Below are positions 1-13,968 of a DNA stretch of 14,654 nt, piece after piece. Every line of letters begins with the position of its first letter. Position 1 is the stretch's first letter. This DNA comes from a virus (taxonomy: Duplodnaviria; Heunggongvirae; Uroviricota; Caudoviricetes), in IMG/VR virus record IMGVR_UViG_2541047722_000008, positions 1 through 14,654 of that record; one strand, written 5' to 3'. A program made the position numbers and the translations under genes. A model generated the notes under the pieces. That model worked only from the letters and a program-made list of their open reading frames with translations. It was not told the DNA's origin and searched no databases.

Positions 1-1119
1 TCAAATAACCAACTTAACCCATTCCTGACCTCGAGTATCGTTATAGCGATCGGTGGTTGCCTGGACTTTATGTCCTAGTAATGTTTTTGTATCGATACCC
101 TGTGCACGGTACAGCCGTTCTGATAGAGAGCGTTGTTCATGAAATGTTGGCGGAGTTTTTCCTGCTGGTGGAATTATCCCAGCCAGATCCCGTGCTTTGG
201 CAAAGTAGTCGCTCAGGTTGTCTTTACTCATCGGCTTCGGTTGTTTCTGGTGCCGACTATGGATTAGATATGGACTTAATATTCTGTCTCGGCACCCATC
301 AATAACTTCTTTTAACGTTATCCCAATGGCATCACAGCGTAGTGTAAGCGGTAACGCCAGACGCATTCCGGTTTTTCCCTGGGTGATATGCAAGTGTTCG
401 TTCCACACATCTGAAAAACGCATGTGGCAAATGTCATCACGGCGCTGACCAGTAACAATCGCAAGAAGCATTGCGTTACGGATAAAGTGTTTTTCAGGCG
501 TTGCATTGTAAATTTTTTGCCAGTCTTCCATGGTGAGCCTGGCTCTGGTTACTTTAGGGATCGGTTTACGGGTAGCCTCCGGAGGATTCCATCCAGGAGG
601 AACTTCCCCTGCATGCTGTGCTTCTTTATAAATATCAACCCATAATCCACGATTTACTCTCGCTGTGCTGACCATGTCTTTATCCAGCCACTCATCCAGT
701 ATTAATGCAAAGTCTCTTACTTCCAGTTCTTTCAATGGGTGGTTTCCCAGACGGGAAACCAGGTATGCAGCCATTCGGGTTTTTTCTTTGTGAGTTGTAG
801 CTGCAATATCTCCATTTTTCAGTCGCGTGTCCTGTATTTTCAGATATCGATCAACCCATGCCTTTAATCTGATACCCCGACGTTTTGTTGCTGACGGACT
901 TTCATCAATTTTGCGCATGAAATATTCAGCTTCTGCTGCAGCTATTCGCTGATTGGCTGTGGAAGCGATTTTTTCTGCCTTACCTTTGTCTGTTCCGAGT
1001 CCGTGAAATTTTCCAGTCACAGGATTTTTATACTGGTAGTAAACTCTGCCAGTTCTGCGATCAAACTTTTCGTAAAGACCGGCTACGTCAGTGCTGTTTT
1101 TTCGTGGCCTCGGTGACAT
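1..1119 (-). CDS. int: Tyrosine site-specific integrase (lambda Int family)
   Basis: 372-aa ORF, ATG at 1119-1117, stop at 3-1. The C-terminal half carries the tyrosine-recombinase pattern (…GQRRDD…, …HSRHQ…, …LLGHK…, …TDRY). It sits at the prophage end next to an excisionase-like gene. Confidence 0.9.
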   Translation of the reverse strand: MSPRPRKNSTDVAGLYEKFDRRTGRVYYQYKNPVTGKFHGLGTDKGKAEKIASTANQRIAAAEAEYFMRKIDESPSATKRRGIRLKAWVDRYLKIQDTRLKNGDIAATTHKEKTRMAAYLVSRLGNHPLKELEVRDFALILDEWLDKDMVSTARVNRGLWVDIYKEAQHAGEVPPGWNPPEATRKPIPKVTRARLTMEDWQKIYNATPEKHFIRNAMLLAIVTGQRRDDICHMRFSDVWNEHLHITQGKTGMRLALPLTLRCDAIGITLKEVIDGCRDRILSPYLIHSRHQKQPKPMSKDNLSDYFAKARDLAGIIPPAGKTPPTFHEQRSLSERLYRAQGIDTKTLLGHKVQATTDRYNDTRGQEWVKLVI

Positions 1120-1357
1120 GAGTTAAAATCTCCTTCAGTGCATCATCATCGCCAGTATGAATTTCCGGCGCAATTCCCGTTTCACCAGGCCCAACAAATA
1201 CTGCTCGGCGATCTATCAGCCAACGCCCACGAATTTTTTGTGGTCTTGGAACGATGTATCCTAGTTTTCCGTATTTCACCAGGGTAGTGTTTGTTATTGG
1301 GAGACTGAACCGTTTTGGTTTCCACTCGTCGAGCGTTATCAGGTACTGTTCGCTCAT
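1088..1357 (-). CDS. Excisionase-like small DNA-binding protein
   Basis: 89 aa from ATG 1357 (GGAG 8 nt upstream); the six-frame track extends it to a GTG at 1366. Immediately upstream of int with a 32-bp overlap, as in lambdoid xis-int pairs. Function assigned by position and size only. Confidence 0.55.
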   Translation of the reverse strand: MSEQYLITLDEWKPKRFSLPITNTTLVKYGKLGYIVPRPQKIRGRWLIDRRAVFVGPGETGIAPEIHTGDDDALKEILTHVTEATKKQH

Positions 1358-1418
1358 GGCTATCACTCCGGAACGCGCCAGTTGCAGAATATCAACGACA
1401 ACTGGCGACGGTTGAACA

Positions 1419-3860
1419 TTAAAAATCAGCCTGATTCGGGATCAGTTTTTGCCAGATAGCTGAAACGTATTTTGCCTGGTAACGAGCGTCATCAAGTGCA
1501 TTATGGCGCTCACCTTCGAATGGGATAGCAGTTCTGGCATCGAAGTCTATGGCTTTCCCCAGCTCAACGATTGTGCGTACATCGCGATCGTTGTAGTAAC
1601 GCCACGGGCAGGGGATCCCCTGCCGTTCGTATGAACGGCGCAAAATCGTGTTGTCGAAGTTGGCTCCATTTCCCCAGACCTGAACAAAAAATTCACCGGA
1701 GTTTTCGTCGATAAATTCCCGCAATTGTAACAGTGCATCATCTAACGGGATTTCATCGGTCATAATGGCAGATTGCGCTTCGCGTGATTGCTTAAGCCAC
1801 CATTTAATGGTGTCCCGATCAATGACTCCGCCAGCAGTTTCCAGATCGATAGTCTTACTAAATTCCGGTCCCATATCTCCGGTTTGCGGATCGAAAAATA
1901 TTGCACCTATTGAGATGATCGGGGCATCAGGATTTTTTCCCATGGTTTCAAGGTCGATCATTAGATGGTCACACGTCCTGCTGGTGGATGTGATTTCGTG
2001 ATGACCGTTCACCTTAATTGAGTGATCTGCCGTCTCGCCAGTTTTATTATCGCTGGCGTGATGCTGATTGCCGCCAGGGTTCTCCTTGTGTGGATGTTCA
2101 GCGCCTTCCATTTCCTCCGGATCATTTTCCTGAACTTCAACCTGATTCTCTTCATCGAATGTTTCCTGGTATGTTGCGTCGCCCATCACCGCGCCACAAT
2201 CAGGGCAGTTGCCGCCGCCGGTCTGACCGCAGGCGGTGCAGACTTTTTCCGGTTCCTGTTGCGCTACTGATTCGGATTGTTTCGTTTCTGGCTCGTTTTG
2301 TAACGCATTTGGGCTGTTTTGTTCCGCTTTTTGGTCGTTCCGTTCCGATTCATGCTGGTTCTGGTTCACAGAATCGCGAGTCTGGATCCCCTTGACCCAT
2401 TTCGGATCATTAGGGTCGCTAATCCCCTCAACAAATTCACCACGCGATACAGCAAGTAACTTATCGGCGTCAGGCTGGCTGATATTGGCTGCCTGCATAA
2501 TTTTGTTTACTTCGTCAGCGGTGACTTTTACTTGGTTAGCGGAACTCACCTGCGACTGAGCATCCAGCGACTGCGCGTTCTGGCCATGTTCAGTTGTATC
2601 CGGTTCCATTGTTTCAGTTGTTGCCTGTTCACCTGCCATTGCGTCAGATGGTTGTGGTTTTTCTTCTTCTGTTTCACGCTCAGTAACCACCTCGCGGTTA
2701 ATTTCTTCCAGGATATCTTTTTCCGGCGTATGCCGGGCAGCTGTGAGAGTTTCCTTGCTGGGGTTCTCGTGATCAGTTTCCGTCAAATAGGCGTTGATAT
2801 ACCCCTGAAGGCGTCCCGGGTAGTGATAAAATTCAGGGTGTGCGCTTCGGATAAGTGCAAAAATAGCGGCGCGGGAATAGTCCAGAATACCCGGGGTTGC
2901 ACGAAGTGCTGCGGACCATTCTTTGAACGGACTTTCTTTGTTCAGGACTACTTCTTTTGCGCGACGATAAACGCTGCCCGGAATTTCATAAATATTAAAA
3001 TCCATCGGAAGTGTGGCTGCTGCAATCTCCACATCCAGTGTGTCGAGGGTGTGTACTAAATTCGGATTGCGATCGGTTTTGTTCCCACCGCCAGCATTAG
3101 CACCGGAAGCCGTGCGGGTGATGCGTGAAACACGATTTCCTTTCATCCACTCTTTTGTCAGCAGACCCCGATCAGTGTAGTCAGCGTCCAGGTATGCTTC
3201 GAAAAAAGCAGTTATTAGTCCCAGGTCTGAATTACCAGGATTAGGGAAAACTTTGTCAGTGTCACGAACCAGTTTGTGGAGGTCGCGAATCTCCAGCGAG
3301 TCGAGCAGACTGGTTTTATGCGAAATAGCCAGGGCAGTAACAGCCGGTAGTTCTTCAGCCCGTGCAATGTGTAATGCCTGGAGTTCGTCGCGTGAAACGT
3401 GCGTTACTGGTTTTTCGCTGCCGTGTTGAGCAAGCCAACGAATGGGCAGTTCCTGACCGGAGACAGGCAGAAGCATGCTCTCCTCAATCTCAGTCATGTC
3501 TTCGCCGTTGATGTTGGTATTGTCAGTGCTGGCTGGTTTGTCCTGAACAGAGGGGGAAGGGCCGATAAATGTCATTGTGATGCCATCTTTCCCGCCTTTT
3601 TCATAGCGGTTGCAGAATTCAGTATCAAACACGCCTTCTGGCGGAAGGTCGTCAACAACGGGCAAATTGACGCGGACGGGTTTTTTAAAGTCGTCTTCAT
3701 CATAATCGTTGTCATCCATTGCGGTAATGCAGCGGGAGATTGCAACAGATAATTTTTTTGCTGTAGTCCAGTAAAAACCACCTTTAATTCCCAGGCGTTT
3801 TCTTACTTTGTCATTTTTTGCTTCGCAATATAGTGCAAATTCTTCTTTATCAGTGCTCAT
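1419..3860 (-). CDS. Large exonuclease: RecE-like (exodeoxyribonuclease VIII family) N-terminal region, acidic Q/E/N-rich linker, Cys4 zinc-ribbon motif, C-terminal DEDDh (DnaQ-like) 3'-5' exonuclease domain
   Basis: 813-aa ORF. The C-terminal ~180 aa (coords ~1422-1961) carries DEDDh motifs: MIDLETMG (Exo I), VWGNGANFD (Exo II), HNALDDA (Exo III). CTACGQ…CPDCG lies at ~2196-2243. The N-terminal ~300 aa resemble my recollection of the Rac RecE N-terminal region (…[39 protein letters not shown]…). Confidence 0.85.
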
Positions 3861-3953
3861 TATTGGTAAACCTCATCACAGATTTAAGGGTGAACAAATC
3901 TCTGCCATTGCTGACATATAAGAATGAAACTGGATATTTATTACGGTGCTGTT

Positions 3954-4145
3954 TTAAAATCCTGCCGGGATTTCGTTATTATCCTGGTGAATAACTTTAT
4001 CGACCGGGTAACAGTTACCGGGAATTTTCTGTTCGGTTGCTGCAGTCACACACTCCTGCATTGTCCTGTGAACACTGACTGCAATATCAACTGGCTCTCC
4101 GGAAACAAGAAAAAATGTCAGAACAAGTGCAAATGCTGTATTCAT
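3954..4145 (-). CDS. ydfD: YdfD-like small membrane (lysis-type) protein
   Basis: 63 aa from ATG 4145, which overlaps the upstream TGA (ATGA coupling); AGGA sits 8 nt upstream. N-terminal hydrophobic segment MNTAFALVLTFFLVSG. Position right after dicB matches Qin ydfD (63 aa). The track's longer version starts at 4199. Confidence 0.6.
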   Translation of the reverse strand: MNTAFALVLTFFLVSGEPVDIAVSVHRTMQECVTAATEQKIPGNCYPVDKVIHQDNNEIPAGF

Positions 4146-4330
4146 TGCCAGCATCCTTTTTGTATCGGACGTAAACGGGCCAGCATTGAAAGAATGCATA
4201 TTTTATTTAATAACTCCCGTTCGTGTTTTCTCTTGTTAATGGCATCTTCAGTAAATACAGGGTTACTGATAGTGACACCAATTTCAAAACAACCTTCAGA
4301 CGTATTAACGTTTGGTAATAACGTTTCCAT
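4142..4330 (-). CDS. dicB: DicB-like cell-division inhibitor
   Basis: 62 aa (METLLPNVNTSEGCFEIGVTISNPVFTEDAINKRK…), ATG 4330 with GAGGA 7 nt upstream. Same length as, and near-identical to, my recollection of E. coli DicB; located downstream of DicF as in Qin. Confidence 0.75.
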   Translation of the reverse strand: METLLPNVNTSEGCFEIGVTISNPVFTEDAINKRKHERELLNKICILSMLARLRPIQKGCWQ

Positions 4331-4499
4331 TATCGCGTCCTCAACAATGAATTTTGTGATGCAGTGCCTGGTGCCTCCAGGTGACGTTAACCAGTTAACA
4401 ATTAACGCCGGATACAGAGAATCCACCCATAACACTGTTTTTGGTTTTAACTGTTCCGCGTGCGCTTAGCCGCATTCACCGCATCACAAAATTCACTTT

Positions 4500-4557
4500 A
4501 AAAAGGGCGGCAGAGCAGTCACGGAGTAAAACTGATACCGCCAAACGTCACCAGAAA
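4500..4557 (-). ncRNA. dicF: DicF small RNA (ftsZ-targeting sRNA processed from the dicB operon transcript)
   Basis: Minus strand reads TTTCTGGTGACGTTTGGCGGTATCAGTTTTACTCCGTGACTGCTCTGCCGCCCTTTTT, matching the DicF sequence as I recall it, including the 3' GC stem (GGCGG/CCGCC) plus U-run. It lies between the ydfC-like and dicB-like genes as in Qin. Confidence 0.75.
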
Positions 4558-4898
4558 ATTGATAACAGAGGGCGTTGCAGCGGGGTTGTCACTTAAGCGT
4601 ATGGTCAACCTGACAACCCGGTGTCCTCAACGGGGGAAGGAATAACCCCGCCATACTTACCGCCGCGCCATTTCGCGGATTGCCACAACCGGAAGCGCAC
4701 GGTCGACGAAAATTTAACGACAGGCTATCTATGAACCAGCTACCTCGCCGTGCGCTTTCGCGTTATGGTCTGACTTTTCAGGGAAATATCCTTTCAGTAA
4801 ACTGTCAGTGCCGGATGCTCACCCGTGTCCGGCGCACGCACTCCACCTCACCCGTGGAGAACTCCTTAATTACCAACCTTAGCTTCGTTGGTTAGCTA

Positions 4899-5117
4899 TT
4901 AACGCGGGTATGTAATCATTCTGGCAATGCTTAATGCCGCTGCTTTTTCCAGATTGGTGATATCCTGCTCCAGAGCGGACAGATTTTCAGCCTGCTTAGC
5001 CCTGGCTTCATTAGCCCATTTCAGATCCTGCGCTGCATTAATTTTCTGGCGCATCCACTCATAAAGTTCATCATCGGTATAGTCTGGCGCGATGATGACG
5101 GGTTCTCGTTTCTGCAT
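4899..5117 (-). CDS. ydfC: YdfC-like small protein of the dicB operon
   Basis: 72 aa, ATG 5117 with AAGGAG 5 nt upstream. Same length and operon position as Qin YdfC; no motif recognised. Confidence 0.55.
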   Translation of the reverse strand: MQKREPVIIAPDYTDDELYEWMRQKINAAQDLKWANEARAKQAENLSALEQDITNLEKAAALSIARMITYPR

Positions 5118-5209
5118 GTCGGCTCCTTGTGGTTAGCGTTGCCTGCTTTTAACCACGTCAGGCGAGGTGGTATCCTCTGAGGGGTCTGTTACTCGAGAGG
5201 AAATTGGTT

Positions 5210-5410
5210 ATGAATACAATCAAGTTTTCTTGCCCAGAATGTGGTGGCGAAGTCTTTGACACATCCTTTAAGCCGCAGGGCTCTGACAGTTTCGCGGGAG
5301 CCATCTGCAAAAATTGTGGTCACCTTGTAACTGAAGATGAGTCCTCGCAGTTCGATGACGAAATCGTTGACAATATCTTCGGTGCACTCACCAGAGACTT
5401 TCTGAAATAA
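5210..5410 (+). CDS. Small zinc-ribbon protein (CxxC-N19-CxxC) with acidic C-terminal tail
   Basis: 66 aa: MNTIKFSCPECGG…CKNCGH…DESSQFDDEIVDN. ATG 5210 with GAGG 9 nt upstream; codons look typical for E. coli; a strong hairpin follows the stop. It conflicts with the antisense ORF 5189..5545, so this is not certain. Confidence 0.5.
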   Translation: MNTIKFSCPECGGEVFDTSFKPQGSDSFAGAICKNCGHLVTEDESSQFDDEIVDNIFGALTRDFLK

Positions 5411-5456
5411 AGACGCATACCGCTTAGTTACCGCTCTGATAACTCTTACCTGTCCG

Positions 5457-5500
5457 GCAATGGCGCTGATGTCAATATAAAGCGCCATTGCTGCTTCTTT
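5457..5500 (+). terminator. Hairpin (11-bp perfect stem GCAATGGCGCT/AGCGCCATTGC, 13-nt loop) followed by a T-rich stretch; putative terminator for the zinc-ribbon gene
   Basis: Perfect inverted repeat 5457-5467 / 5481-5491, then TGCTTCTTTG. The U-tract is weak, so factor-independent termination is uncertain. Confidence 0.35.
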
Positions 5501-5619
5501 GCCGATCCCGTGATGCCTTCCATTCTGATGTTTGACTTCGCCCACTGAGAAATCCTCTGTTTCCCCTTAACGCCGGGGTAGCGGAACTGTTTGCTGAGAA
5601 CACCGTGCGGTGTCTTGAT

Positions 5620-5680
5620 GAATAAAATTTAGAATAACCTAAGATATGTGGTCAAGATTTTTATGTAGAAAAACCTAAGT
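5620..5680 (-). promoter_or_regulatory. Candidate repressor-controlled leftward promoter (PdicB / pL analogue) with CTTAGGTT operator half-sites
   Basis: Minus strand: -35 TTGACC (5655-5650), 18-bp spacer, -10 TAAATT (5631-5626). The 8-mer AACCTAAG (= CTTAGGTT on the minus strand) occurs at 5636-5643 and 5672-5679, the same motif found at the divergent promoter on the other side of the repressor gene. Confidence 0.4.
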
Positions 5681-5753
5681 TTTTTGATGTGAAAAACACA
5701 AGTGTTTGAAAGTTTGTGCTTTTTATTACAGGGTGTGGAGAAAAAAGGGAGGG

Positions 5754-6161
5754 TTATTTGTTTGCGCTTCTTTTGCGAGCTTTGAGTAGTTCTTCAAAAA
5801 GTTTGTTGAAATTTTCAACTCGAGCACGCATCTCTGACAACAGGGCCTTTTGCTCTGACTCAGGCAGTGCGTCGAACAGTTGAAGTAACTCTTTTTGATC
5901 TTCTGTCAGAAGGGCTGGCTGATTATCCGGGATCGGTTCGCCTGGTTGTTTATCTTCATCCCCAAAAAGAAGCCAAGTCGGTGAGCACTGAAGCGCTTGG
6001 CTCAGTGCGAATAATCTTTTCCCCGCCGGCTGTGTTTCATCTCTTTCCCATTGAGAAATTGTTACGTGAGCCACTTTGACCAGCTTACCTAATGCGGCCT
6101 GAGACAGTTTTAATTTTTTACGCCTATGTAAGAGGCGAGCACCGAAGGTTTCGTTTTTCAT
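5754..6161 (-). CDS. dicA: DicA-like prophage repressor (XRE-family HTH; no LexA-like peptidase domain)
   Basis: 135 aa with an N-terminal HTH (…LKLSQAALGKLVKVAHVTISQWERDETQP…) and the C-terminal segment …LFALSQALQCSPTWLLFGDEDKQP…MRARVENFNKLFEELLKARKR, closely matching my recollection of E. coli DicA (135 aa). No Ala-Gly/Ser-Lys autocleavage module. Confidence 0.85.
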   Translation of the reverse strand: MKNETFGARLLHRRKKLKLSQAALGKLVKVAHVTISQWERDETQPAGKRLFALSQALQCSPTWLLFGDEDKQPGEPIPDNQPALLTEDQKELLQLFDALPESEQKALLSEMRARVENFNKLFEELLKARKRSANK

Positions 6162-6237
6162 ATTAGGGAATTCTAATTTTTCTTGACTTAGGTTTCTCTA
6201 CGATCTAGTTTCCTTAGGAAAATCTAAGGAGCTCGAT
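6162..6237. promoter_or_regulatory. Divergent promoter/operator region between the repressor and the cro-like gene
   Basis: Plus strand: -35 TTGACT (6183-6188), 17-bp spacer, -10 TAGTTT (6206-6211), AAGGAG (6226-6231) 6 nt before ATG 6238. CTTAGGTT at 6187-6194 overlaps the -35; further copies CCTTAGG (6212-6218) and CTAAGG (6224-6229). On the minus strand a TAGAAT (6175-6170) lies ~8 nt before the repressor ATG, suggesting a leaderless PRM-like transcript. Confidence 0.5.
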
Positions 6238-6465
6238 ATGTTGAAAATTGATGCTATAGCGTTTTTTGGCAGCAAAACAAAGCTTGCCAATGCCGCAGGA
6301 GTTAGGCTGGCAAGCATTGCTGCATGGGGGGAACTGGTTCCTGAAGGTCGCGCGATGCGCCTGCAAGAGGCATCCGGCGGGGAACTTCAGTACGACCCCA
6401 AAGTTTATGATGAATATCGTAAGGCAAAGCGGGCGGGGCGGTTGAACAATGAAAATCACCCCTGA
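6238..6465 (+). CDS. dicC: DicC/YdaS-family Cro-like regulator
   Basis: 75 aa (MLKIDAIAFFGSKTKLANAAGVRLASIAAWGELVPEGRAMRLQEASGGELQYDPKVY…), divergent from the repressor, strong SD. Matches my recollection of DicC/YdaS-family proteins. Confidence 0.8.
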   Translation: MLKIDAIAFFGSKTKLANAAGVRLASIAAWGELVPEGRAMRLQEASGGELQYDPKVYDEYRKAKRAGRLNNENHP

Positions 6466-7000
6466 ACAGGTTTGTGAGGCTCTGGATGCCTGGGTATGCC
6501 GACCAGGAATGACACAGGAGCAGGCGACGATATTAATCACGGAAGCGTTCTGGGCTCTGGAAGAACGCCCGAACATCGATGTTCAACGTGTCACGTTTGA
6601 TGATGGTGTGGTTGATCAACGGGCGCTGGGCGTTAACCGGGTGAAGATATTCGAACGCTGGAAAGCTATCGACACCAGGGATAAGCGGGAAAAATTCACG
6701 GCGCTGATTCCGGCAATTATGGAGGCTATCCGGATCAGTGATTTCAGGTTGTATTGTGAAATTACTGACGGAAAAAGCATTACGTACATGATCGCCAGGT
6801 TAAACAAAGAATATGGCGATGTGGTGGAGTCCGGACTGCTTTTTGCAGATCCTGCTGTTGTGGAACGTGAGACTGACGAGCTTATAGAAAAAGCTATTGC
6901 TTTCAAGCATGCGTATCGTCAGCAATACCAACATTACTTTGCAGATAAACAAATATCTGTCTGGGGTTCGTATGAGTATCGATGCACTACGATGGGCTAA
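6449..7000 (+). CDS. YdaT-like protein (proposed CII-like regulator / putative toxin of the YdaS-YdaT pair)
   Basis: 183 aa, overlapping the end of dicC by 17 bp. The N-terminus (MKITPEQVCEALDAW…) and its position directly after the Cro-like gene match the YdaT family as I recall it; assignment is by synteny and general resemblance. Confidence 0.6.
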   Translation: MKITPEQVCEALDAWVCRPGMTQEQATILITEAFWALEERPNIDVQRVTFDDGVVDQRALGVNRVKIFERWKAIDTRDKREKFTALIPAIMEAIRISDFRLYCEITDGKSITYMIARLNKEYGDVVESGLLFADPAVVERETDELIEKAIAFKHAYRQQYQHYFADKQISVWGSYEYRCTTMG

Positions 7001-8012
7001 AAAGGTGAAAACCGGCAGTTCATCCAGTAAGTCAGTATTAACCTGGCTTGCTGATATGTGCGGTGCCGATTTGTGTGCATACCCGTCTGTATCTGCACTG
7101 GCAGAAGTAACGGAACTGAACAAAAAGACTGTGCAGGACAGCTTACGACACCTGATGGAGATTGGGTTAATTGTTGATACCGGTGAGAGAAAAGGCCGAA
7201 CAAAGCAGATCGTAGTGTACCGACTTATCGGTGTTGAAGAAAGTGTTACCGAGGCTGAATACACCCAAAAATGGGAGTCTTTAAAGGTGGGTAAAATTGG
7301 TACTGTTAATAAAAACAGTACCGAAAATGGCTATGTTTCAGCACAAAACAGACCCAAAAACGGAACTCTTAGCTGCATGGAAAATAACCAAAGACACCCA
7401 AATTTTCCATCAAAGACACCCAAAAATGGATCACGGAACCCAAAGGAACCCAAAGATCTAAACCCCACACATAACACACGCGAGAGTGCTCCGACCAGTG
7501 AGCAGGAAGTTTTGTCGTTACAGGCAGCACCCCCTGTATTCCTGGATGGCCTGAGCGAACCCATCGGAAAATTTCCGATGACCGATAGCTGGTATCCGTC
7601 ACGGGATTTTCGACGACGGGCTGCGTTGTGGGGGATGGCTTTGCCGGAGACAGAATTTACACCTGCTGAACTTGCCGCCTTCCGGGACTACTGGACAGCG
7701 GAGGGGAAAGTGTTTACGCAGATTCAGTGGGAGCAGAAATTCGCCCGTCACGTAAATCACGTCAGGGCGCAGGTTAAACCAGTCAGCAAGGGGGTAAACC
7801 ATGCAGCAGCACCAGGTGGCACCGCATCACGGGCAGTTCAGGAAATTCGGGCAGCACGTGAGCAGTGGGAACGTGAAAACGGATTTATCAGCGACGGAAA
7901 CGGCCTGGAAGCTGTGGGAGCTCATGGGGGAGGTTTATTCGAACCGCTGGACCCAGAAGAATGGGGCCGCACCTTCGAAGCTCTGGATTGCACAGATTGG
8001 CGCGATGACTGA
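6972..8012 (+). CDS. Replication initiator, O-like: N-terminal winged-helix DNA-binding domain plus C-terminal DnaT-like domain
   Basis: In-frame ATG 6972 (MSIDALRWAKK…) preceded by GGGG. N-terminal HTH (…SVSALAEVTELNKKTVQDSLRHLMEIGLIV…); C-terminal region (…FTPAELAAFRDYWTAEG…) resembles the DnaT C-terminal domain. The ORF has good E. coli-like codon usage up to its stop at 8012, overlapping the next gene by 212 bp. The track's start at 6897 is inside the previous gene. Confidence 0.7.
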   Translation: MSIDALRWAKKVKTGSSSSKSVLTWLADMCGADLCAYPSVSALAEVTELNKKTVQDSLRHLMEIGLIVDTGERKGRTKQIVVYRLIGVEESVTEAEYTQKWESLKVGKIGTVNKNSTENGYVSAQNRPKNGTLSCMENNQRHPNFPSKTPKNGSRNPKEPKDLNPTHNTRESAPTSEQEVLSLQAAPPVFLDGLSEPIGKFPMTDSWYPSRDFRRRAALWGMALPETEFTPAELAAFRDYWTAEGKVFTQIQWEQKFARHVNHVRAQVKPVSKGVNHAAAPGGTASRAVQEIRAAREQWERENGFISDGNGLEAVGAHGGGLFEPLDPEEWGRTFEALDCTDWRDD

Positions 8013-8466
8013 GCAGCAAATCCGACAGGTCTGCCGCCAGTGCATGGACCGCTGCCGGGCGGGTGAAACATGGCCTCCGGACCTGGCTGAGTTTGTGGCA
8101 CTGATTTCGGAAAGCGGAGCCAATCCATTCGGTCTGACGGTGGATGCCGTGATGGAGGAGTACCGTCGCTGGCGCAACGAGTCCTGGCGATACGACGGGA
8201 GCGATAAATACCCGTGGTCTCAGCCTGTGCTGTATCACATTTGCCTCGAGATGCGTTCAAAGGGGATTGAGCGGCAGATGACCGAAGGGGAGTTAAAACG
8301 GCTTGCAGAACGGCAGCTGACGAAATGGGCAAAGCATGTTAGTAACGGCCTGAGCGTTCCGCCAGTCCGGCGACAACTGGCGGCCCCCAAACGTCCTGCG
8401 GGACCAACGCCAATTGAGTTGCTGAAACAGGAATATGAACGCCGGAAAGCGGCTGGGTTTGTCTGA
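7801..8466 (+). CDS. Lambda P-like replication protein (helicase loader family)
   Basis: 221 aa from ATG 7801 (AAGGGGG 6 nt upstream). Segments …PPDLAEFVAL…, …YPWSQPVLYHICLEMR…, …TEGELKRLAERQL… align with lambda P (…PSPGQFVAWC…, …YPWKSNAHYWLVTNLY…, …TDAELRRKAADEL…) as I recall it. An alternative start at ATG 8005 (ATGACTGA overlap with the O stop) would give 153 aa. Confidence 0.6.
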   Translation: MQQHQVAPHHGQFRKFGQHVSSGNVKTDLSATETAWKLWELMGEVYSNRWTQKNGAAPSKLWIAQIGAMTEQQIRQVCRQCMDRCRAGETWPPDLAEFVALISESGANPFGLTVDAVMEEYRRWRNESWRYDGSDKYPWSQPVLYHICLEMRSKGIERQMTEGELKRLAERQLTKWAKHVSNGLSVPPVRRQLAAPKRPAGPTPIELLKQEYERRKAAGFV

Positions 8467-8498
8467 TTTGAGAAGTAATTTTTACCGGGAGGAAATTT

Positions 8499-9269
8499 AT
8501 GGAGACTGTTTTTGACGCACTGAAAGCGATGGGAAAAGCCACGTCGGTAGAGCTGGCTGCGCGACTTGATATCAGTCGTGAAGAAGTGCTGAACGAGCTG
8601 TGGGAACTGAAAAAGGCTGGCTTCGTTGATAAAAGCGTATACACCTGGCGTGTGGCTGGCGAAGGTGAATCCGGGGTAGCCGAAGAGCAGCCAGCACAAT
8701 CTGAAGCACCGGATGTGCTAACCAGGGAGGTCGAACGAAAAGTTACCGCTGACATGATGATTGAGTTTATCGGTCAGGAGGGTGCTAAAACGAGTGAGGA
8801 ACTGGCGGGTAAGTTCGGTGTCAGCACTCGCAAGGTTGCTTCCACGCTGGCGGTAGTAACCGCAACGGGGCGGCTGGCACGCGTAAACCAGAACGGTAAA
8901 TTTCGCTACTGCATGCCGGGCGAGAATTTACCAGTAAAGCCGAAAGTCGCATCGGTAACGGAAAATGATGGTAAAGCCTTTCCTCAGCCAGCCGGCGTTG
9001 CGTTACCAGTACAGGAAGCTGCAACACAGGAAGATATTAAAACAGAAACTGTGGCGGACATTGTGCAGTCGTTGCCATCGTTCACCGAAACGCGAGCGGA
9101 TGACCTGATTTTACCATCGCTGCATATGGCAAACCGCGAACTGCGTCGGGCGAAAAATCATGTCCAGAAGTGGGAGCGTGTCTGCGCCGCGCTGCGGGAG
9201 TTGAACAAGCATCGGGATATTGTTCGACAGATTACTGATTTTTCCCGCCGTGTTGCATCGGAAAAGTGA
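8499..9269 (+). CDS. DUF1627-like prophage protein (two winged-helix-like repeats)
   Basis: 256 aa, GGGAGG 6 nt before ATG. Starts [41 protein letters not shown]… with a second similar repeat (…[33 protein letters not shown]…). Resembles a conserved family downstream of replication genes in E. coli lambdoid prophages. Confidence 0.65.
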
Positions 9270-9284
9270 TTGCCGGAGGCGCTT

Positions 9285-9689
9285 ATGGCAAAAGTATTTA
9301 CACAAGAAGAGCGGGAAAAAATTAAGGGGCAGATTGTTGAACTTGTACGTCTGAGCGGTCGCGAGACGTTACGGCAACTGGAAGCGAAAACAGGTGCGAC
9401 AAGATATCTGATGAGTGTTCTCGCCAGAGAGCTGGTTGCCAGTGGCGATGTATACAATTCTGGCTACGGGTTATTTCCGTCTGAACAGGCTCGTAAGGAC
9501 TGGCAAAACGCCCGCAAAAAACTATCGAGGGCAAAGGCGAAGAAACCGGTTGTGGTTGCTCCGGACCTTATCTGGTCATTACCAGACGGAGAAATACGCC
9601 GCTACGACAGGCGTCAGAACATGATTTGCCGTGAGTGCCGGGAAAGCGAAGTTATGCAGCGTATACTAACGTTCTATTGGGGAATATAG
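9285..9689 (+). CDS. Hypothetical protein (134 aa)
   Basis: ATG 9285 with GGAGG 5 nt upstream (the track's start at 9270 is a TTG). Contains a CRECRE motif near the C-terminus; no family recognised. Confidence 0.55.
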   Translation: MAKVFTQEEREKIKGQIVELVRLSGRETLRQLEAKTGATRYLMSVLARELVASGDVYNSGYGLFPSEQARKDWQNARKKLSRAKAKKPVVVAPDLIWSLPDGEIRRYDRRQNMICRECRESEVMQRILTFYWGI

Positions 9690-9704
9690 CCACTAAATAA
9701 GGTA

Positions 9705-10016
9705 ATGAACCAAATGAACACGGAAAAAGCGAAAACGCAGCTCAGGATAATGCTTGCCGGTCCGGCTGCGAGTTATACGACACATTCACCAGCCATAAAA
9801 AAGGTTCTTGATGAACTGGAAGCCAAAGACAAGCGCATTGCAGAACTGGAGGCAAGGGAAGTCCAGCTACCGGCTGGCTATGAACTTCGATATGGACACC
9901 CGATAAATGCTGATGAGCGCCATGTCATGATACCTAAGGAAAATGGCAGCTGGATTTATCTGGCTGATTTAGAGCGCGCACTACGTGTTGCTGGCATTCG
10001 CATCAAAGGAGAGTGA
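9705..10016 (+). CDS. Hypothetical protein, possibly ead/Ea22-like (103 aa)
   Basis: Central coiled-coil-like segment (VLDELEAKDKRIAELEAREVQL); closely spaced with its neighbours. Family assignment is tentative. Confidence 0.5.
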   Translation: MNQMNTEKAKTQLRIMLAGPAASYTTHSPAIKKVLDELEAKDKRIAELEAREVQLPAGYELRYGHPINADERHVMIPKENGSWIYLADLERALRVAGIRIKGE

Positions 10017-10017
10017 C

Positions 10018-10374
10018 GTGGAAATAAAACCAGAAGATGAGTTAAGTAATATTGTTTTATTTCCGGTAAAAGAAGATGACCCACGTAATCAGGTTAATTT
10101 TCTTTATGAGCCATCGGAAAGACCATATTGCCATCACGCTTCTGTCCGGGTTGATGAAAAAGAGCGTCAGGTCCGCTGTAAAATCTGCGGTGCAGTTGTG
10201 GAGCCGTTTGACTGGATGCTCTCTGTGGCGAAAAGAGAAACCAGACTGGCAGATGATGTAAGGCTATTGCGTCAGGAGGAACGGGAAAGGCGGAAAAATA
10301 TAGAAAAGCTAATTCAGATTGAGCGTAACGCAAAAGCGCGGATACGCAGAGCGACAAAATCCAGAACTGAATAA
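10018..10374 (+). CDS. Hypothetical zinc-finger protein with basic coiled-coil tail (118 aa)
   Basis: GTG 10018 with AGGAG 6 nt upstream, one nt after the previous stop. Motif C-HH…C-KIC-G (YCHHASVRVDEKERQVRCKICG) and an R/K/E-rich C-terminus. Confidence 0.5.
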   Translation: MEIKPEDELSNIVLFPVKEDDPRNQVNFLYEPSERPYCHHASVRVDEKERQVRCKICGAVVEPFDWMLSVAKRETRLADDVRLLRQEERERRKNIEKLIQIERNAKARIRRATKSRTE

Positions 10375-10469
10375 TTAAATTTAGCACTGTTAAAAATTTA
10401 ATCCTTAACCGGAGGGATTTCTGTACCCTCAGAACATCAGGAGGCCGCCTGAAAGGGCAGTAATGAAAA

Positions 10470-11021
10470 ATGACTGAATTAACAAAAGAGCAATTAATCG
10501 AAGAAGCTAAATTTAAAATAGCGATTGCGAAATGCCACCCTAATTCAGAGATGGCACGGGTAGAGGGTGAGTTATTCAAAATTGCACTGGCATCGCTGGA
10601 AGCGGAGCCTGTTGGTGAATTTTATGAGTATAAGCCGGGCGGCTGGTATCAGCATTCGGCTGGAGATAAAGCGCCAAAGTGGATACAACTCTACGCTGTG
10701 CCGCCAGCGCTCGCAGCACCTGAAGGACTGGTTAAAGCAGTGCGCTTTTATGAACAGGTAAAGCGTGAGAATCCACCAGTCGAAACAGGAGCATGGAAAG
10801 ATGCTGTTGATTGGGTACTCAAAGAGGCCTGCTGTGCTGTCATTCTGGGTAAAGCCGACAATCCATTAGCATCCAGTAACCAAGTTGGCGAATTAACAAT
10901 GTGGGTTAAACGACTGGTCAGTCAACTGAAAAAAGCTAATCCAGACTGCAAATTACCGGAGAAGGCGATGGACTACCTGAAGCGGAACGAACTGATAAGC
11001 GCGGAGGATGTTTTGCGATGA
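10470..11021 (+). CDS. Hypothetical protein (183 aa)
   Basis: Long ORF with E. coli-like codon usage, in the same orientation as its neighbours; weak SD; no motif recognised. Confidence 0.55.
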   Translation: MTELTKEQLIEEAKFKIAIAKCHPNSEMARVEGELFKIALASLEAEPVGEFYEYKPGGWYQHSAGDKAPKWIQLYAVPPALAAPEGLVKAVRFYEQVKRENPPVETGAWKDAVDWVLKEACCAVILGKADNPLASSNQVGELTMWVKRLVSQLKKANPDCKLPEKAMDYLKRNELISAEDVLR

Positions 11022-11134
11022 CCTGGCCTGAAGCATTCACAACGGTAGGAATTGCAATGGCGGTGGCGCTGGTGGTGTATTCGATTTGCCGCTGGGGGGA
11101 AGGTATTAAAAAACGCCCCGCACACAGACGTTGA
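11018..11134 (+). CDS. Small single-pass membrane peptide (38 aa), translationally coupled to the upstream gene
   Basis: ATG 11018 overlaps the upstream stop (ATGA). Peptide MTWPEAFTTVGIAMAVALVVYSICRWGEGIKKRPAHRR: hydrophobic helix plus basic tail. Below the length cut-off of the ORF track. Confidence 0.35.
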   Translation: MTWPEAFTTVGIAMAVALVVYSICRWGEGIKKRPAHRR

Positions 11135-11262
11135 GCGCCTGAGATGTGGGGATAGGGAGTTAGTTAAATAGTTGTACAACAATACCTGATTTTATATTGA
11201 AGCAAGAAATAGGTTGCTACATATTGAATCATGCGTGTGTACGTCAAATATGGGAGGTCATC

Positions 11263-11352
11263 GTGCTGGTTCTGAAATGTGCGCTGGCTATTGCGGCAGT
11301 AATGGCAATTTATTGTCTTGTTATCGTTCTTATGAATCACCTCTCTGATTGA
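11263..11352 (+). CDS. Candidate small hydrophobic peptide (29 aa)
   Basis: GTG 11263 with GGGAGG 5 nt upstream. Peptide (V/M)LVLKCALAIAAVMAIYCLVIVLMNHLSD is almost entirely hydrophobic. Ends at the hok promoter -35. Expression unproven. Confidence 0.25.
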   Translation: MLVLKCALAIAAVMAIYCLVIVLMNHLSD

Positions 11353-11359
11353 TTTTATA

Positions 11360-11388
11360 TTGGCGAGGTGACGTGAGTTAAGTAGAAT
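11360..11388 (+). promoter_or_regulatory. Candidate hok mRNA promoter
   Basis: -35 TTGGCG (11360-11365), 17-bp spacer, -10 TAGAAT (11383-11388). The downstream leader (…GCTTGAGGCTATCTGCC…GGCAGATAGAGAAAAGCCCC…) resembles the folded 5' region of R1 hok mRNA as I recall it. Confidence 0.4.
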
Positions 11389-11449
11389 TGCTGCGGGTGC
11401 TTGAGGCTATCTGCCTCGGGCATGAACACCAACGGCAGATAGAGAAAAG

Positions 11450-11520
11450 CCCCAGTTAACATTACGCGTCCTGCAAGACGCTTAACATTAATCTGAGGCT
11501 CAATCCATGCTGAACACATG
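11450..11520 (-). ncRNA. sok: Candidate Sok antisense RNA (approximate boundaries)
   Basis: Minus-strand promoter-like elements: -35 TTGCCT (11550-11545), 17-bp spacer, -10 TAACCT (11527-11522), antisense to the mok SD/start region as in hok/sok loci. A GCGTC/GACGC hairpin and U-rich stretch lie at ~11440-11480. Ends not determined. Confidence 0.35.
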
Positions 11521-11719
11521 TAGGTTAGCCTCTTACGTGCCGAAAGGCAAGGAGAAGCAGGCTATGAAGCAGCAAAAGGCGATGCTAATCGCCCTGATCG
11601 TCATCTGTTTAACCGTCATAGTGACGGCACTGGTAACGAGGAAAGACCTCTGCGAGGTACGAATCCGAACCGGCCAGACGGAGGTCGCTGTCTTCACAGC
11701 TTACGAACCTGAGGAGTAA
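11507..11719 (+). CDS. mok: Mok (modulator of killing) reading frame: N-terminal extension in frame with hok
   Basis: ATG 11507 with GAGG 8 nt upstream; MLNTCRLASYVPKGKEKQA then reads into hok, as I recall for chromosomal mokC/hokC. Confidence 0.55.
   Translation: MLNTCRLASYVPKGKEKQAMKQQKAMLIALIVICLTVIVTALVTRKDLCEVRIRTGQTEVAVFTAYEPEE
11564..11719 (+). CDS. hok: Hok/Gef-family type I toxin
   Basis: 51 aa MKQQKAMLIALIVICLTVIVTALVTRKDLCEVRIRTGQTEVAVFTAYEPEE: the Hok/Gef signature (TM helix, then TRKDLCEV.IRTGQTEVAVF.AYE). AAGGAG 9 nt upstream. Confidence 0.9.
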   Translation: MKQQKAMLIALIVICLTVIVTALVTRKDLCEVRIRTGQTEVAVFTAYEPEE

Positions 11720-11788
11720 GAGACCAGGCGGGGGAGAAATCCCTCGCCACCTCTGATGAGTCAGGCATCCTCAATGCACCCACACTTA

Positions 11789-11820
11789 ACCCGCTTCGGC
11801 GGGTTTTTGTTTTTATTTTC
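11789..11820 (+). terminator. Rho-independent terminator downstream of hok
   Basis: ACCCGC-TTCG-GCGGGT hairpin followed by TTTTTGTTTTTATTTT. Confidence 0.65.
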
Positions 11821-11939
11821 AACGCGTTTGAAGTTTTGGATGGTGCCGGAATAGAATCAAAAATACTTAAGTAGCGCGCAGGGAGAAGAGGGATGGACCC
11901 CGAACAGGGGAGTGCTATTTATCTGGAAGGATTCTGTTG

Positions 11940-12197
11940 ATGAAAATCGAAGAATTACGTGAAATTTTTAGTGAAGATGGCCTCTATACTGTGCGCGTTG
12001 AGAATGGCGCTATTGTCAGCCACTGCCGTATTAAATGTTTACAGTCTCAACAAAGGAAGAGTGGAGCTGCGTTAATTCATTTTGTGGATGGGCTTGTGAC
12101 GGATGGTTTTATTTTGCGTGCAAATGAATTTGTCACATCGTTGCCGTCTCTGAAAAAAGCTGGGATTAAGGCTGGTTTTTCTGCTTTTGAAGATTAG
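11940..12197 (+). CDS. Hypothetical small protein (85 aa), possibly Rem-like by position
   Basis: ATG 11940 (the track starts 3 nt earlier at a TTG), GGAAGGA upstream. Located between hok and the DUF968 gene, where Qin carries rem; no motif recognised. Confidence 0.45.
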   Translation: MKIEELREIFSEDGLYTVRVENGAIVSHCRIKCLQSQQRKSGAALIHFVDGLVTDGFILRANEFVTSLPSLKKAGIKAGFSAFED

Positions 12198-12266
12198 TGA
12201 ATTCATCTACAATTCAGCGCAGGGCTGAACCCCTGTTGAGTAACACTGTGCCACCGGAGAAAGCCG

Positions 12267-12545
12267 ATGGCGCAAAATTCCAGACTACACAATTCTGATA
12301 ATTCAGCCGTCTTTGTCAGCAGGCACGGGCGGCGTTCTCACACATTCAAATATGACTGGTACCAGCATGACCCCTGCACTGAAGAACAGGCCGAATGGCT
12401 GATTCAGAACTACCGCAGACGTGGGTATGTGTTTAGGAAAGCCCTCACCCTCGATTATCGTCTCTGGATAATCTCCGTCAGGCTCCCTTATTCCGAACGC
12501 CCGCCGCGTCCGTCCCGCACATTCCAGCAACGCATCTGGAGGTAA
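12267..12545 (+). CDS. Hypothetical protein (92 aa)
   Basis: ATG 12267 with GGAGA 6 nt upstream; its stop is one nt before the next gene's start. No motif recognised. Confidence 0.5.
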   Translation: MAQNSRLHNSDNSAVFVSRHGRRSHTFKYDWYQHDPCTEEQAEWLIQNYRRRGYVFRKALTLDYRLWIISVRLPYSERPPRPSRTFQQRIWR

Positions 12546-12546
12546 C

Positions 12547-13602
12547 GTGCGGGTATTGCTTCGACCTGTTCCTGTACCGGAACTTGGGCTGGTGGTCCTT
12601 AAGCCTGGCCGTGAATCCATGCAGGTATTTCATAACCCTCGAGTGCTGGTGGAGCCGGAACCGAAAAGCATGCGTAATCTGCCGTCCGGGGTCGTTCCTG
12701 CCGCTCGCCAGCCGCTGGTGGAAGACAAAACATTGCTGCCGTTTTTCAGTAACGCACGGGTGATTCGTGCTGCTGGTGGTGCTGGTGCATTGTCTGACTG
12801 GCTGTTGCGCCATATTAAATCCTGCCAGTGGCCACACGGCGATTATCATCACAGCGAAACCGTCATTCACTGTTATGGTACCGGCGCAATGGTGTTGTGC
12901 TGGCACTGCGACAACCAGCTGCGTGACCAGACATCCGAATCACTCGAGCAACTTGCTCATCAAAACCTGTCAGCATGGATGATTGACGTCATCGGTCACG
13001 CAATAAGCGGTACGCAGGAGCGTGAATTATCTTTGGCTGAATTATCCTGGTGGGCGGTCCGCAATCAGGTGGCGGACGCGCTACCGGAAGCGGTATTACG
13101 TCGTTCGCTGGGGTTGCGTGCGGAAAAAATCCGCTCAATGTACCGTGAAAGCGATATCGTACCGGGAGAGCAGACCGCCACCAGCATACTGAAGCAGCGC
13201 ACAAAAAATCTTGCGCCGCTGCCTCACGCCCACCAGCAAAACCCGCCACAGGAAAAGACGGTGGTCAGCATTGCCGTTGATCCGGAGTCACCGGCTCAGT
13301 ATCTCCAGCGCCAGAAACCACAACGGGAAGAGATGCCTGTATACACGCGCTGGGTAAAAACGCAGAAATGCATGACGTGCGGTAATCAGGCAGATGATCC
13401 GCATCACATCATTGGTCATGGACTGGGAGGGATGGGAACAAAGGCTGATGATTTGTTTGTTATTCCGCTGTGCCGTAAATGTCATAACGAACTGCACGCC
13501 GGGGTAAAAGATTTTGAAGAAAAACACGGCAGCCAGCTGTTGTTGCTGATTCGTTTTTTAATGCACGCGAGAAATTCGGGTGTCCTGAAGTGGAAAGCAT
13601 GA
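12547..13602 (+). CDS. DUF968-family protein with C-terminal HNH/His-Me-finger-like motif (YdfU-like)
   Basis: 351 aa, GTG 12547 with GGAGG upstream. C-terminal motif …CMTCGNQADDPHHIIGHGLGGMGTKADDLFVIPLCRKCHNELHAG… (Cys pairs flanking HH…H…N…H). Position before rusA/Q matches Qin ydfU (~349 aa). Confidence 0.7.
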   Translation: MRVLLRPVPVPELGLVVLKPGRESMQVFHNPRVLVEPEPKSMRNLPSGVVPAARQPLVEDKTLLPFFSNARVIRAAGGAGALSDWLLRHIKSCQWPHGDYHHSETVIHCYGTGAMVLCWHCDNQLRDQTSESLEQLAHQNLSAWMIDVIGHAISGTQERELSLAELSWWAVRNQVADALPEAVLRRSLGLRAEKIRSMYRESDIVPGEQTATSILKQRTKNLAPLPHAHQQNPPQEKTVVSIAVDPESPAQYLQRQKPQREEMPVYTRWVKTQKCMTCGNQADDPHHIIGHGLGGMGTKADDLFVIPLCRKCHNELHAGVKDFEEKHGSQLLLLIRFLMHARNSGVLKWKA

Positions 13603-13968
13603 ATGACTGAACGCATAGAATTTGTTTTGCCTTACCCGCCGACGGTGAATACCTACTGGCGACGTCATGGCAATACGTATTTCATCTCGGAGGCCGGAAA
13701 GCGTTATCGCCGTGATGTGGCGCTAATTGTTCGCCAGCAGCGGCTGAAATTAAACCTGTCCGGAAGGCTGGCGATAAAGATTATTGCAGAGCCACCGGAT
13801 AAGCGCCGTCGTGACTTGGACAATATCCTGAAGGCACCACTGGATGCGCTGACGCATGCCGGACTACTTATAGACGACGAGCAGTTTGATGAAATCAATA
13901 TTGTGCGCGGTCAGCTCGTTCCTGGTGGGCGGCTGGGGATAAAAATCACAGAACTGGAGTGCGCATGA
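13603..13968 (+). CDS. rusA: RusA Holliday-junction resolvase
   Basis: 121 aa with the RusA hallmarks (…LPYPPTVNTYWRRH…, …PDKRRRDLDNILKAPLDALT…, …GGRLGIKITEL…). Start immediately follows the upstream stop. Confidence 0.9.
   Translation: MTERIEFVLPYPPTVNTYWRRHGNTYFISEAGKRYRRDVALIVRQQRLKLNLSGRLAIKIIAEPPDKRRRDLDNILKAPLDALTHAGLLIDDEQFDEINIVRGQLVPGGRLGIKITELECA

Follow-up and report, generated by a model that had tools for sequence, protein, structure and literature searches.

A dicC/ydaT-type gene pair in the cro-cII position of a Qin/PPompW-type lambdoid prophage, with predicted YdaT boxes at the ydaT start and upstream of xis-int

The systems closest to the gene pair treated here are the ydaS/ydaT genes of the prophages CP-933P and Rac, the dicA-dicC-ydfX region of the K-12 prophage Qin, and cro and cII of lambda. 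From genomic context, Jobling regarded YdaS and YdaT in a letter as the counterparts of Cro and CII (PMC5917428), and Jurenas et al. described those of CP-933P as regulators and not as a toxin-antitoxin (TA) pair, YdaT activating a leftward PRE-type promoter, PRE933P (PMC8630535). According to Prolic-Kalinsek et al., the YdaT structure comprises a POU-like helix-turn-helix (HTH) domain and an antiparallel four-helix bundle that forms the tetramer, DNA binding being dependent on oligomerisation, and the footprint of CP-933P YdaT covers TTGATT-N6-AATCAA at the ydaS/ydaT junction (PMC9986795). For Rac, Wons et al. report a footprint at ATGATT-N6-AATCAA over the ydaT ATG itself and a box-dependent rise of racR transcription of up to 29-fold (PMC11879457). 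The present analysis concerns a dicC-type and a ydaT-type gene at positions 6238-7000 of a stretch of 14,654 nucleotides of caudoviricete DNA (IMG/VR virus record IMGVR_UViG_2541047722_000008, positions 1 to 14,654), which as a whole is called the window and to which all coordinates refer.

Two overlapping genes and their products

The gene dicC (6238..6465, plus strand, ATG start) encodes a Cro-type regulator of 75 aa and has a Shine-Dalgarno sequence, AAGGAG, 6 nt ahead of its ATG, and the putative CII-analogue gene of the YdaT family (6449..7000, plus strand, ATG start) encodes 183 aa; the two overlap by 17 bp (bases 6449-6465). Both reading frames and their overlap, as described in a first-pass annotation of the letters alone, agree exactly with the open reading frame (ORF) listing and with the sequence. 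RefSeq has the same two coding sequences (CDS), 228 nt and 552 nt long and with an identical overlap, in a 98% identical locus of an Escherichia coli chromosome, where they are named 'Cro/CI family transcriptional regulator' and 'toxin YdaT family protein'. The 1.5-kb region of the pair is present in 2533 of 5426 complete E. coli genomes (749 of them with a coverage of at least 80%) and also in PPompW prophages, some of which are found in records that hold Stx2a phages as well. The 183-aa form is encoded, at 93-98% identity, by 80/80 retrieved viral contigs, which are near-identical relatives of the window locus, and the 90% cluster of the protein comprises 1504 member sequences; YdaT-type proteins annotated as cII or CII-like are furthermore carried by the temperate, plaque-forming phages mEp460, HannyBb, and PhiR42_1. 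Both ORFs are genuine conserved genes, and the pair is an ordinary and very widespread lambda-like E. coli prophage switch of DicC/Cro and YdaT/CII analogue, of which the present one is a previously uncharacterised member.

Concerning the 75-aa protein, the NCBIfam profile NF007282 (DicC) is matched over positions 1-75 of 75 with 167.9 bits (cut-off 130) and the Pfam profile PF14549 (P22_Cro) with 49.7 bits (cut-off 30.2); the protein is similar to the structure of P22 Cro (PDB 1rzs, E 2.5e-7), is assigned to phrog_409, and is 84% identical to DicC of K-12 Qin. Judged by these matches it is DicC, a member of the P22-Cro family, in agreement with the earlier designation as Cro-like or DicC. The alternative designation as YdaS-like is not borne out, because the protein scores 20.4 bits against the YdaS family PF15943 in a Pfam profile search, i.e., below the cut-off of 30, and has no BLASTP match to Rac YdaS.

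The likeness of the 183-aa protein to YdaT, also noted in the first-pass annotation, is recovered by PF06254 (YdaT; 26.2 bits, cut-off 21, residues 59-131), by phrog_163, 'CII-like transcriptional activator' (E 8.6e-42, residues 1-159), and by hhalign, in which a profile of its homologues aligns with Rac YdaT over residues 1-105 at a probability of 98.2%. An AlphaFold model of the monomer (mean pLDDT, the predicted local distance difference test score, 77.8; 83-96 at residues 1-100) contains helices at residues 5-16, 23-35, 57-73, 77-97, 99-106, and 111-130 and a loop of 21 residues (36-56). In this model, residues 1-106 form a POU-like HTH domain with a long alpha2-alpha3 loop, which is followed by a long helix, and the helix at about 111-130 is the counterpart of the YdaT tetramerisation helix. 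Among PDB structures, only those of YdaT (8bt1 and 3c4r) reach E <0.01 in Foldseek, with a probability of 1.00 and template modelling (TM) scores on the target of 0.61-0.65 (8bt1: 0.65). Sequence and model together identify the 183-aa protein as a member of the YdaT family. R70 and W71 in its recognition helix are invariant in 18 homologues and align in hhalign with R57 and W58 of Rac YdaT, in which the H56A/R57A mutant has lost DNA binding (PMC11879457); in CP-933P YdaT the counterpart of the arginine is Arg60.

An alignment with lambda CII itself, and a structure prediction for a fold like that of CII, had also been proposed. BLASTP finds no match between lambda CII and the 183-aa protein, hhalign yields a probability of 0.35% (E 0.17), and no Pfam family other than PF06254 is matched, such that homology to lambda CII was rejected; what the model displays is the POU-like HTH fold of the YdaT type, as in 8bt1 and 3c4r. 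The sole local likeness to lambda CII is situated around 'RWK' of the recognition helix, which is also remarked in PMC11879457. The term 'CII-like' therefore denotes a functional analogue and not a CII fold. The fold, the DNA-contact residues, and the context place the 183-aa protein in the Cro/CII class of regulators; by analogy with the described homologues, it would bind DNA, probably as an oligomer, and activate rather than repress.

With 183 aa, the protein is longer than Rac YdaT (140 aa) and CP-933P YdaT (141 aa), both of which have a short disordered tail after the long tetramerisation helix (PMC9986795, PMC11879457), and the extra C-terminal region suspected at first sight is indeed present. 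A conserved proline follows the helix at about residues 111-130, and according to model and alignments a further long helix begins at about residue 135, of which the part up to about residue 162 (residues ~135-162, 6851-6934, plus strand) is conserved in the subfamily. In 16-18 aligned homologues of 31-93% identity, conservation extends to about residue 162 (consensus ...ERECDEA...YRQQYQ) and the typical protein length is 154-173 aa; the last 21 residues (163-183, 6935-6997, plus strand), delimited by the alignments and by the end of DNA homology, are not conserved among these homologues. The DNA homology shared with mEp460, HannyBb, and PhiR42_1 extends up to 6933 (codon 162), and the proteins of these phages end differently, at 173 aa; the tail has thus arisen as a side effect of joining the replication module. 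The extension is consequently in part a feature of the subfamily (the helix) and in part a recombination scar (the tail, which changes with the replication module).

Predicted YdaT boxes and adjacent promoters

By comparison, a YdaT box of the type TGAAC-N6-AATCA is predicted at 6443-6458 (box 1, TGAACAATGAAAATCA), where it overlaps the ATG of the ydaT-type gene (6449-6451) in the register that the Rac box ATGATTCATGAAAATCAA has according to its footprint (PMC11879457). In seven lineages, anchored on the ydaT ATG and differing in their reading frames and in the upstream gene (DicC, YdaS-like, or another HTH protein), the 6 nt before this ATG are an invariant TGAACA, with an identity of 1.00 at -6..-1 versus 0.33 at -60..-7, and the consensus of the box is TGAAC-N6-(G/A)ATCA. 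Elsewhere in the window, the box pattern is matched exactly just once; this predicted box 2 (TGAACATTAAAAATCA, 1413-1428) overlaps the stop codon of an exonuclease gene and is situated 56-71 bp upstream of the ATG of xis; a third, paQ-like box was not found by the pattern search of the window. On the minus strand, each box is accompanied at a distance of 21 nt by a -10-like hexamer: TACGAT (6416..6421) next to box 1, as part of a predicted pRE-like promoter that would run antisense to dicC toward dicA, and TATTCT (1386-1391) next to box 2, as part of a predicted pI-like promoter. The targets of the latter would be xis (1088-1357, minus strand, 89 aa; PF07825 Exc, 23.2 bits) and int (1-1119, minus strand, 372 aa; integrase domains PF09003 and PF00589), both of which also carry these names in RefSeq.

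One box at the ydaT start and one upstream of xis are found in all 14 loci examined, i.e., the window, HannyBb, a Raoultella and a Salmonella prophage, Rac of K-12, and nine viral contigs, and each locus of 14-45 kb contains two, rarely three, exact matches: two in HannyBb (45 kb) and two each in the Raoultella and Salmonella prophages (20 kb each). K-12 Rac (24.5 kb) contains exactly three perfect TGATT-N6-AATCA boxes, namely the published one at the ydaT start, the palindromic TGATTATTAATAATCA in the xisR-rcbA spacer (MG1655 1413504-1413519), and one inside ydaW (MG1655 1423119-1423134). As far as could be checked, the published studies of YdaT from CP-933P and Rac mention neither a box at xis-int nor the xisR and ydaW boxes of Rac; in the text of PMC11879457, xisR, intR, integrase, and excisionase never occur, and CP-933P is said to have just one strong YdaT site (PMC9986795). 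The compared loci comprise at least three combinations of xis and int families (Exc or DUF1233; Arm-DNA-bind_1 or Arm-DNA-bind_2). Within a phage, the left half-site is the same at both boxes, being TGAAC in 10/10 loci of the TGAAC type and TGATT in 4/4 of the TGATT type; the latter comprise Rac together with three viral contigs, and their YdaT proteins are those of the other subfamily, such that the half-site tracks the subfamily. In Salmonella phage ST64B, used as a control, which shares the 3' end of the exonuclease gene and has no YdaT gene, no box is present in 11 kb. The gene after cro in ST64B (9873-10154) encodes a protein like YmfL of e14, which belongs neither to the YdaT nor to the CII family and, being unrelated to these two, adds a third type of occupant to the cII slot.

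A TAnnnT motif occurs 21-22 nt leftward of the box in 10/10 loci and in both sets of boxes, and is essentially absent rightward and at other offsets; for the box at the ydaT start, none of the ten loci has it on the rightward side. Such a spacing would bring the centre of the box to about -41.5, the place of an activator that replaces the -35 element, and it suggests that boxes and hexamers constitute pRE-like and pI-like promoters. A scan of 5500-7100 with the sigma-70 consensus yielded no strong promoter except for one site on the OL side (left-operator side); activator-dependent promoters, with start sites at the predicted positions, are therefore put forward on the basis of the comparison.

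The -10-like hexamer next to box 2 lies in the loop of an inverted repeat (1376..1407, minus strand; arms 1376-1384 and 1399-1407) that folds into a hairpin with a free energy (dG) of -18.9 kcal/mol (z -2.8). Stable hairpins follow the xis-upstream box in all ten lineages (dG -14.7 to -26.5 kcal/mol, z -2.1 to -6.0 against shuffles, each sequence being folded separately), always with the -10-like hexamer in the loop and with stems of varying sequence. For a MAFFT alignment of these hairpins, RNAalifold gives -2.6 kcal/mol, since the stems cannot be matched up by sequence. No such hairpin follows the boxes at the ydaT start in the ten lineages. A transcript from the predicted pI-like start would be without the 5' arm, and read-through transcripts would form the hairpin.

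Two further repeats around box 1 were considered and rejected. The near-perfect palindrome CGAACATCGATGTTCA (6570-6585, inside ydaT and 127 bp from box 1) has one mismatch, and counts of one-mismatch sites are at chance level, which argues against a third site; it is conserved solely among members of the close E. coli clade, and neither the Raoultella nor the Salmonella locus has it. An inverted repeat of 13 nt (6408-6420 and 6527-6539; 12/13 complementary, 106 nt apart), which brackets box 1, was discarded as a pair of flanking sites of the OL and OR (left- and right-operator) type because it is conserved only among close relatives.

Immunity region, proposed switch, and alternative readings

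Divergently from the pair, a dicA-type repressor gene (5754..6161, minus strand) encodes 135 aa with an HTH_3 domain, matches NF007257 over its full length with 236.7 bits (cut-off 101), and is 62% identical to K-12 DicA. In the dicA-dicC intergenic region of 76 bp, a pattern search finds three operators of the OR type, TTAG-N6-CTAA, at 6163-6176, 6188-6201, and 6214-6227; a spacing of N7 was rejected in this search, N6 being the one that fits. These operators surround a putative pR-like promoter on the plus strand, read from the sequence as TTGACT (6183-6188) and TAGTTT (6206-6211) with a spacer of 17 nt. Downstream of dicA, two operators of the OL type (5629-5642 and 5665-5678; the whole element spans 5626..5678) overlap a leftward promoter-like site, TTGACC...TAAATT (5655 to 5626, minus strand), which would head the dicF/dicB operon. 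The same outer operator motif is found at the equivalent positions of K-12 Qin, including those downstream of dicA. To the right, a gene for an O-like replication initiator with a DnaT domain (6972..8012, plus strand) overlaps the ydaT tail by 29 nt and is followed by a gene for a P-like helicase loader. The order is hence DicA, operators, DicC, YdaT, O, and P, with int, xis, the exonuclease, dicF, and dicB to the left. In this early and immunity region of a lambdoid prophage, the pair occupies the cro-cII slot and represents the rightward early regulators of a Qin/PPompW-type prophage, within a longer rightward operon that includes the overlapping O and P genes.

From these observations, we consider it highly probable that the pair is a switch of the Cro/CII type in which the YdaT-type protein, as CII analogue, activates promoters directed toward the repressor gene and toward xis-int. 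DicA would shut pR and the leftward dicF/dicB promoter, acting at the TTAG-N6-CTAA operators. Upon infection or derepression, pR would provide DicC and the YdaT-type protein, the translation of which is probably coupled by the 17-bp overlap, and DicC, as Cro analogue, would compete for the DicA operators. An oligomer of the YdaT-type protein would bind the two inverted repeats; at box 1 (TGAAC-N6-AATCA, own start codon) it would start leftward transcription from the pRE-like promoter, antisense through dicC and into dicA, by which the repressor would be established, and at box 2 it would turn on xis-int from the pI-like promoter. In this manner, the YdaT-type protein would couple repressor synthesis with integration, as lambda CII does. 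For the YdaT-family CII analogues of enterobacterial lambdoid and Rac-like prophages in general, a conserved two-promoter regulon seems rather likely, consisting of box, 21-22 nt, and TAnnnT, with one copy at the ydaT start (pRE-like) and another upstream of xis-int (pI-like, the -10 in a hairpin loop), and with a class of half-site that co-varies with the subfamily.

The toxin label of the family reportedly goes back to a prediction from 2007 and persists in Pfam and RefSeq names ('YdaT_toxin', 'YdaS_toxin'; 'toxin YdaT family protein'). Together with the resemblance of two small overlapping genes to a TA operon, it might suggest a type II TA-like module with the YdaT-like protein as toxin and the DicC/YdaS-like protein or the repressor as antidote, and Rac YdaT is indeed toxic on derepression or overexpression (PMC5700377, PMC11879457). 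However, this toxicity is explained by transcriptional activation of the host gene rcsA (PMC11879457), overproduced lambda CII is likewise toxic (PMC5917428), no TA behaviour and no toxicity of YdaT were found for CP-933P (PMC8630535), and Christensen-Dalsgaard 2010, as cited in PMC5917428, reportedly obtained no evidence for a TA pair. In the window, the supposed toxin has an HTH DNA-binding fold with conserved DNA-contact residues, DicC remains below the threshold of the YdaS family, and the pair is situated in the cro-cII slot between repressor and replication genes; it is not self-contained but part of a longer operon with O and P, under the control of the divergent DicA and of three operators. 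A TA module is thus most improbable, and of the two functions considered in the first-pass annotation, the lysis-lysogeny switch has the support of the gene order, the operators, the family, the fold, and the literature, whereas the TA-like one is contradicted by the HTH fold, the cro-cII slot, and the experiments with homologues (PMC8630535, PMC5917428, PMC9986795, PMC11879457). Hardly more credible is the assumption that the two genes are without a function at present, being left over from a cryptic prophage in decay. Such decay exists in the family, e.g., in the K-12 Qin copy, which is cut to YdfX (96 aa), and many of the YdaT-type proteins in databases are fragments or chimeras; but in the window both ORFs, the repressor, the operators, int, xis, and the O and P genes are intact, the 183-aa form is kept in all of the viral contigs and in its large cluster, and plaque-forming phages carry a YdaT-type protein.

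Closer to the proposed switch is the view that the YdaT-like protein binds DNA and mainly represses or autoregulates from its own start codon, or controls host genes, and does not activate lysogeny promoters. Box 1 covers the protein's own ATG, which would suit a roadblock or autoregulation, the authors of the CP-933P study consider YdaT a repressor with its box at or downstream of the start site (PMC9986795), and Rac YdaT binds the racR-ydaS intergenic promoter region as well as the host rcsA promoter (PMC11879457). We regard this as unlikely, because in both studied systems YdaT raises leftward transcription toward the repressor gene (PMC8630535; 29-fold in PMC11879457) and the expression of Rac ydaT itself is little changed, and because the fixed position of TAnnnT, in both sets of boxes, is the signature of an activator-dependent promoter and not of an operator. 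Several points nevertheless weigh against the Cro/CII-type switch with its two activated promoters. The experimental data come from homologues outside the subfamily of the 183-aa protein, and similarity to these is low (a BLASTP match to Rac YdaT over just 29 residues; 28-30% identity to CP-933P YdaT in the structural alignment); the model is of low confidence in helices 111-130 and 135-181 (pLDDT 45-72). The box differs from the published consensus TTGATT-N6-AATCAA by three mismatches, and at up to three mismatches this consensus has 7 matches in the window, with 10.7 expected, so that the bare count does not exceed chance. Unlike the predicted geometry, the YdaT-dependent reverse promoter of Rac is situated about 190 bp from the box (PMC11879457), and the CP-933P box lies at or downstream of the PRE933P start and covers an alternative start (PMC9986795). 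Excision of Rac is triggered by overexpression of YdaS and not of YdaT (PMC11014345), which argues against a strong YdaT-driven production of active Xis and Int, at least in that cryptic prophage. Finally, the compared lineages share ancestry, such that the counts of boxes and spacings are not fully independent.

The sequence is a mosaic, with junctions at about 1410, 6331, and 6933. PPompW and several other phages share just 1410-1480, the joint being at the edge of box 2, and have different xis and int genes to the left. The phages mEp460, HannyBb, and PhiR42_1 share just 6331-6933, which comprises dicC in its 3' half, box 1, and the core of YdaT, and differ in the repressor, the operators, the N-terminus of Cro, and the replication genes; the CII-like gene and its predicted cis site thus move together.

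Among the remaining genes, the leftward operon is as in Qin and includes the small RNA DicF (4505-4556, minus strand; Rfam, 76.7 bits) and the cell-division inhibitor DicB (4142-4330, minus strand; PF05358, 127 bits). Between this operon and dicA, an ORF of 118 aa (5189-5545, minus strand; phrog_21318) overlaps on the opposite strand an ORF of 68 aa (5204-5410, plus strand) that is CxxC...CxxC zinc-ribbon-like; in a related genome in RefSeq, the plus-strand ORF is annotated and the minus-strand ORF is called incomplete. The exonuclease gene (1419-3860, minus strand) encodes 813 aa, with an N-terminal region of the Exonuc_VIII (RecE) type and a C-terminal Rv2179c-like 3'-5' exoribonuclease domain (228 bits), and is split in the closest RefSeq genome, where one part is a shorter CDS and the other a pseudogene. 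A real TA system, of type I, exists elsewhere in the same prophage, consisting of the antisense RNA sok (11395-11569, plus strand; Rfam RF01794, 113.5 bits) and a hok-type toxin ORF (11507-11719, plus strand).

Significance and comparison with known systems

For annotation, the pair can be taken as a switch of the Cro/CII type that belongs to a prophage family very common in E. coli. The name 'toxin YdaT family protein' used in databases misleads, and the 'protein YdfX' of K-12 is the stump of this CII analogue. If the proposed regulon is true, YdaT-type regulators drive both xis-int and the repressor gene directly, which would complete the analogy with lambda CII and explain the two DNA-binding faces of the tetramer despite the single strong site that is reported. 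Two classes of specificity (TGAAC and TGATT) would furthermore be defined, and the regulon would bear on the integration and maintenance of Rac, of Qin-like elements, and of PPompW phages that occur in tandem with Stx2a phages.

The organisation in the window is similar to that of CP-933P, in which the ydaT gene also follows a Cro-like gene, precedes an O-like gene, and has an inverted-repeat box at its junction with the Cro-like gene; CP-933P YdaT (8bt1) and its relative 3c4r have PF06254, an N-terminal POU-like HTH, and a long helix in common with the 183-aa protein. There are differences, however: the window protein has 183 instead of 141 aa, with an extra helix (about residues 135-162) and a tail in place of the disordered 17-residue end of CP-933P, and its predicted half-site is TGAAC, whereas that of CP-933P is TGATT. 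DicC and DicA stand where CP-933P has YdaS and PaaR2, with no TA cassette inserted.

Concerning Rac, the layout of repressor, Cro-like gene, and CII-like gene (RacR, YdaS, YdaT) is the same, the box overlaps the ydaT ATG in the register of the window (TGA-N10-TCA, the ATG occupying positions 4-6 of the spacer), Arg and Trp in the recognition helix are conserved, and an exact box lies upstream of xisR, as it does upstream of xis in the window. Homology of the CII-like proteins is limited to about the first 105 residues, the C-terminal part being unrelated; Rac YdaS represents a different HTH family from DicC, and the Rac genes are 22 bp apart, whereas those of the window overlap.

The dicA-dicC-ydfX region of K-12 Qin contains direct orthologues of all three genes (DicC 84%, DicA 62%, YdfX 89% to residues 1-93) and resembles the window also in the overlap of 17 bp, in how the TTAG-N6-CTAA operators are arranged, and in having the dicF/dicB operon on the left. 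The ydfX gene (2847-3137 of the Qin locus) corresponds to 6449-6727 of the window; from its identity to residues 1-93 and the same overlap with dicC, YdfX is therefore a truncated remnant of the CII-analogue gene. In Qin, this gene breaks off after codon 93 and no replication genes are left, whereas both are intact in the window; DicA has diverged and the inner bases of the operators differ, and immunity specificity probably differs as well.

With lambda, the window shares the logic and the gene order of cro and cII, the second rightward gene encoding in lambda an oligomeric HTH activator. The site of lambda CII lies across the -35 region of weak promoters that point leftward, one of them antisense to cro and directed toward the repressor gene and the other for int, as is likewise predicted in the window. 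The predicted site of the window is an inverted repeat, whereas that of lambda CII is a direct repeat (TTGC-N6-TTGC), and the predicted int promoter is located upstream of xis and in a hairpin loop, whereas lambda pI lies inside xis.

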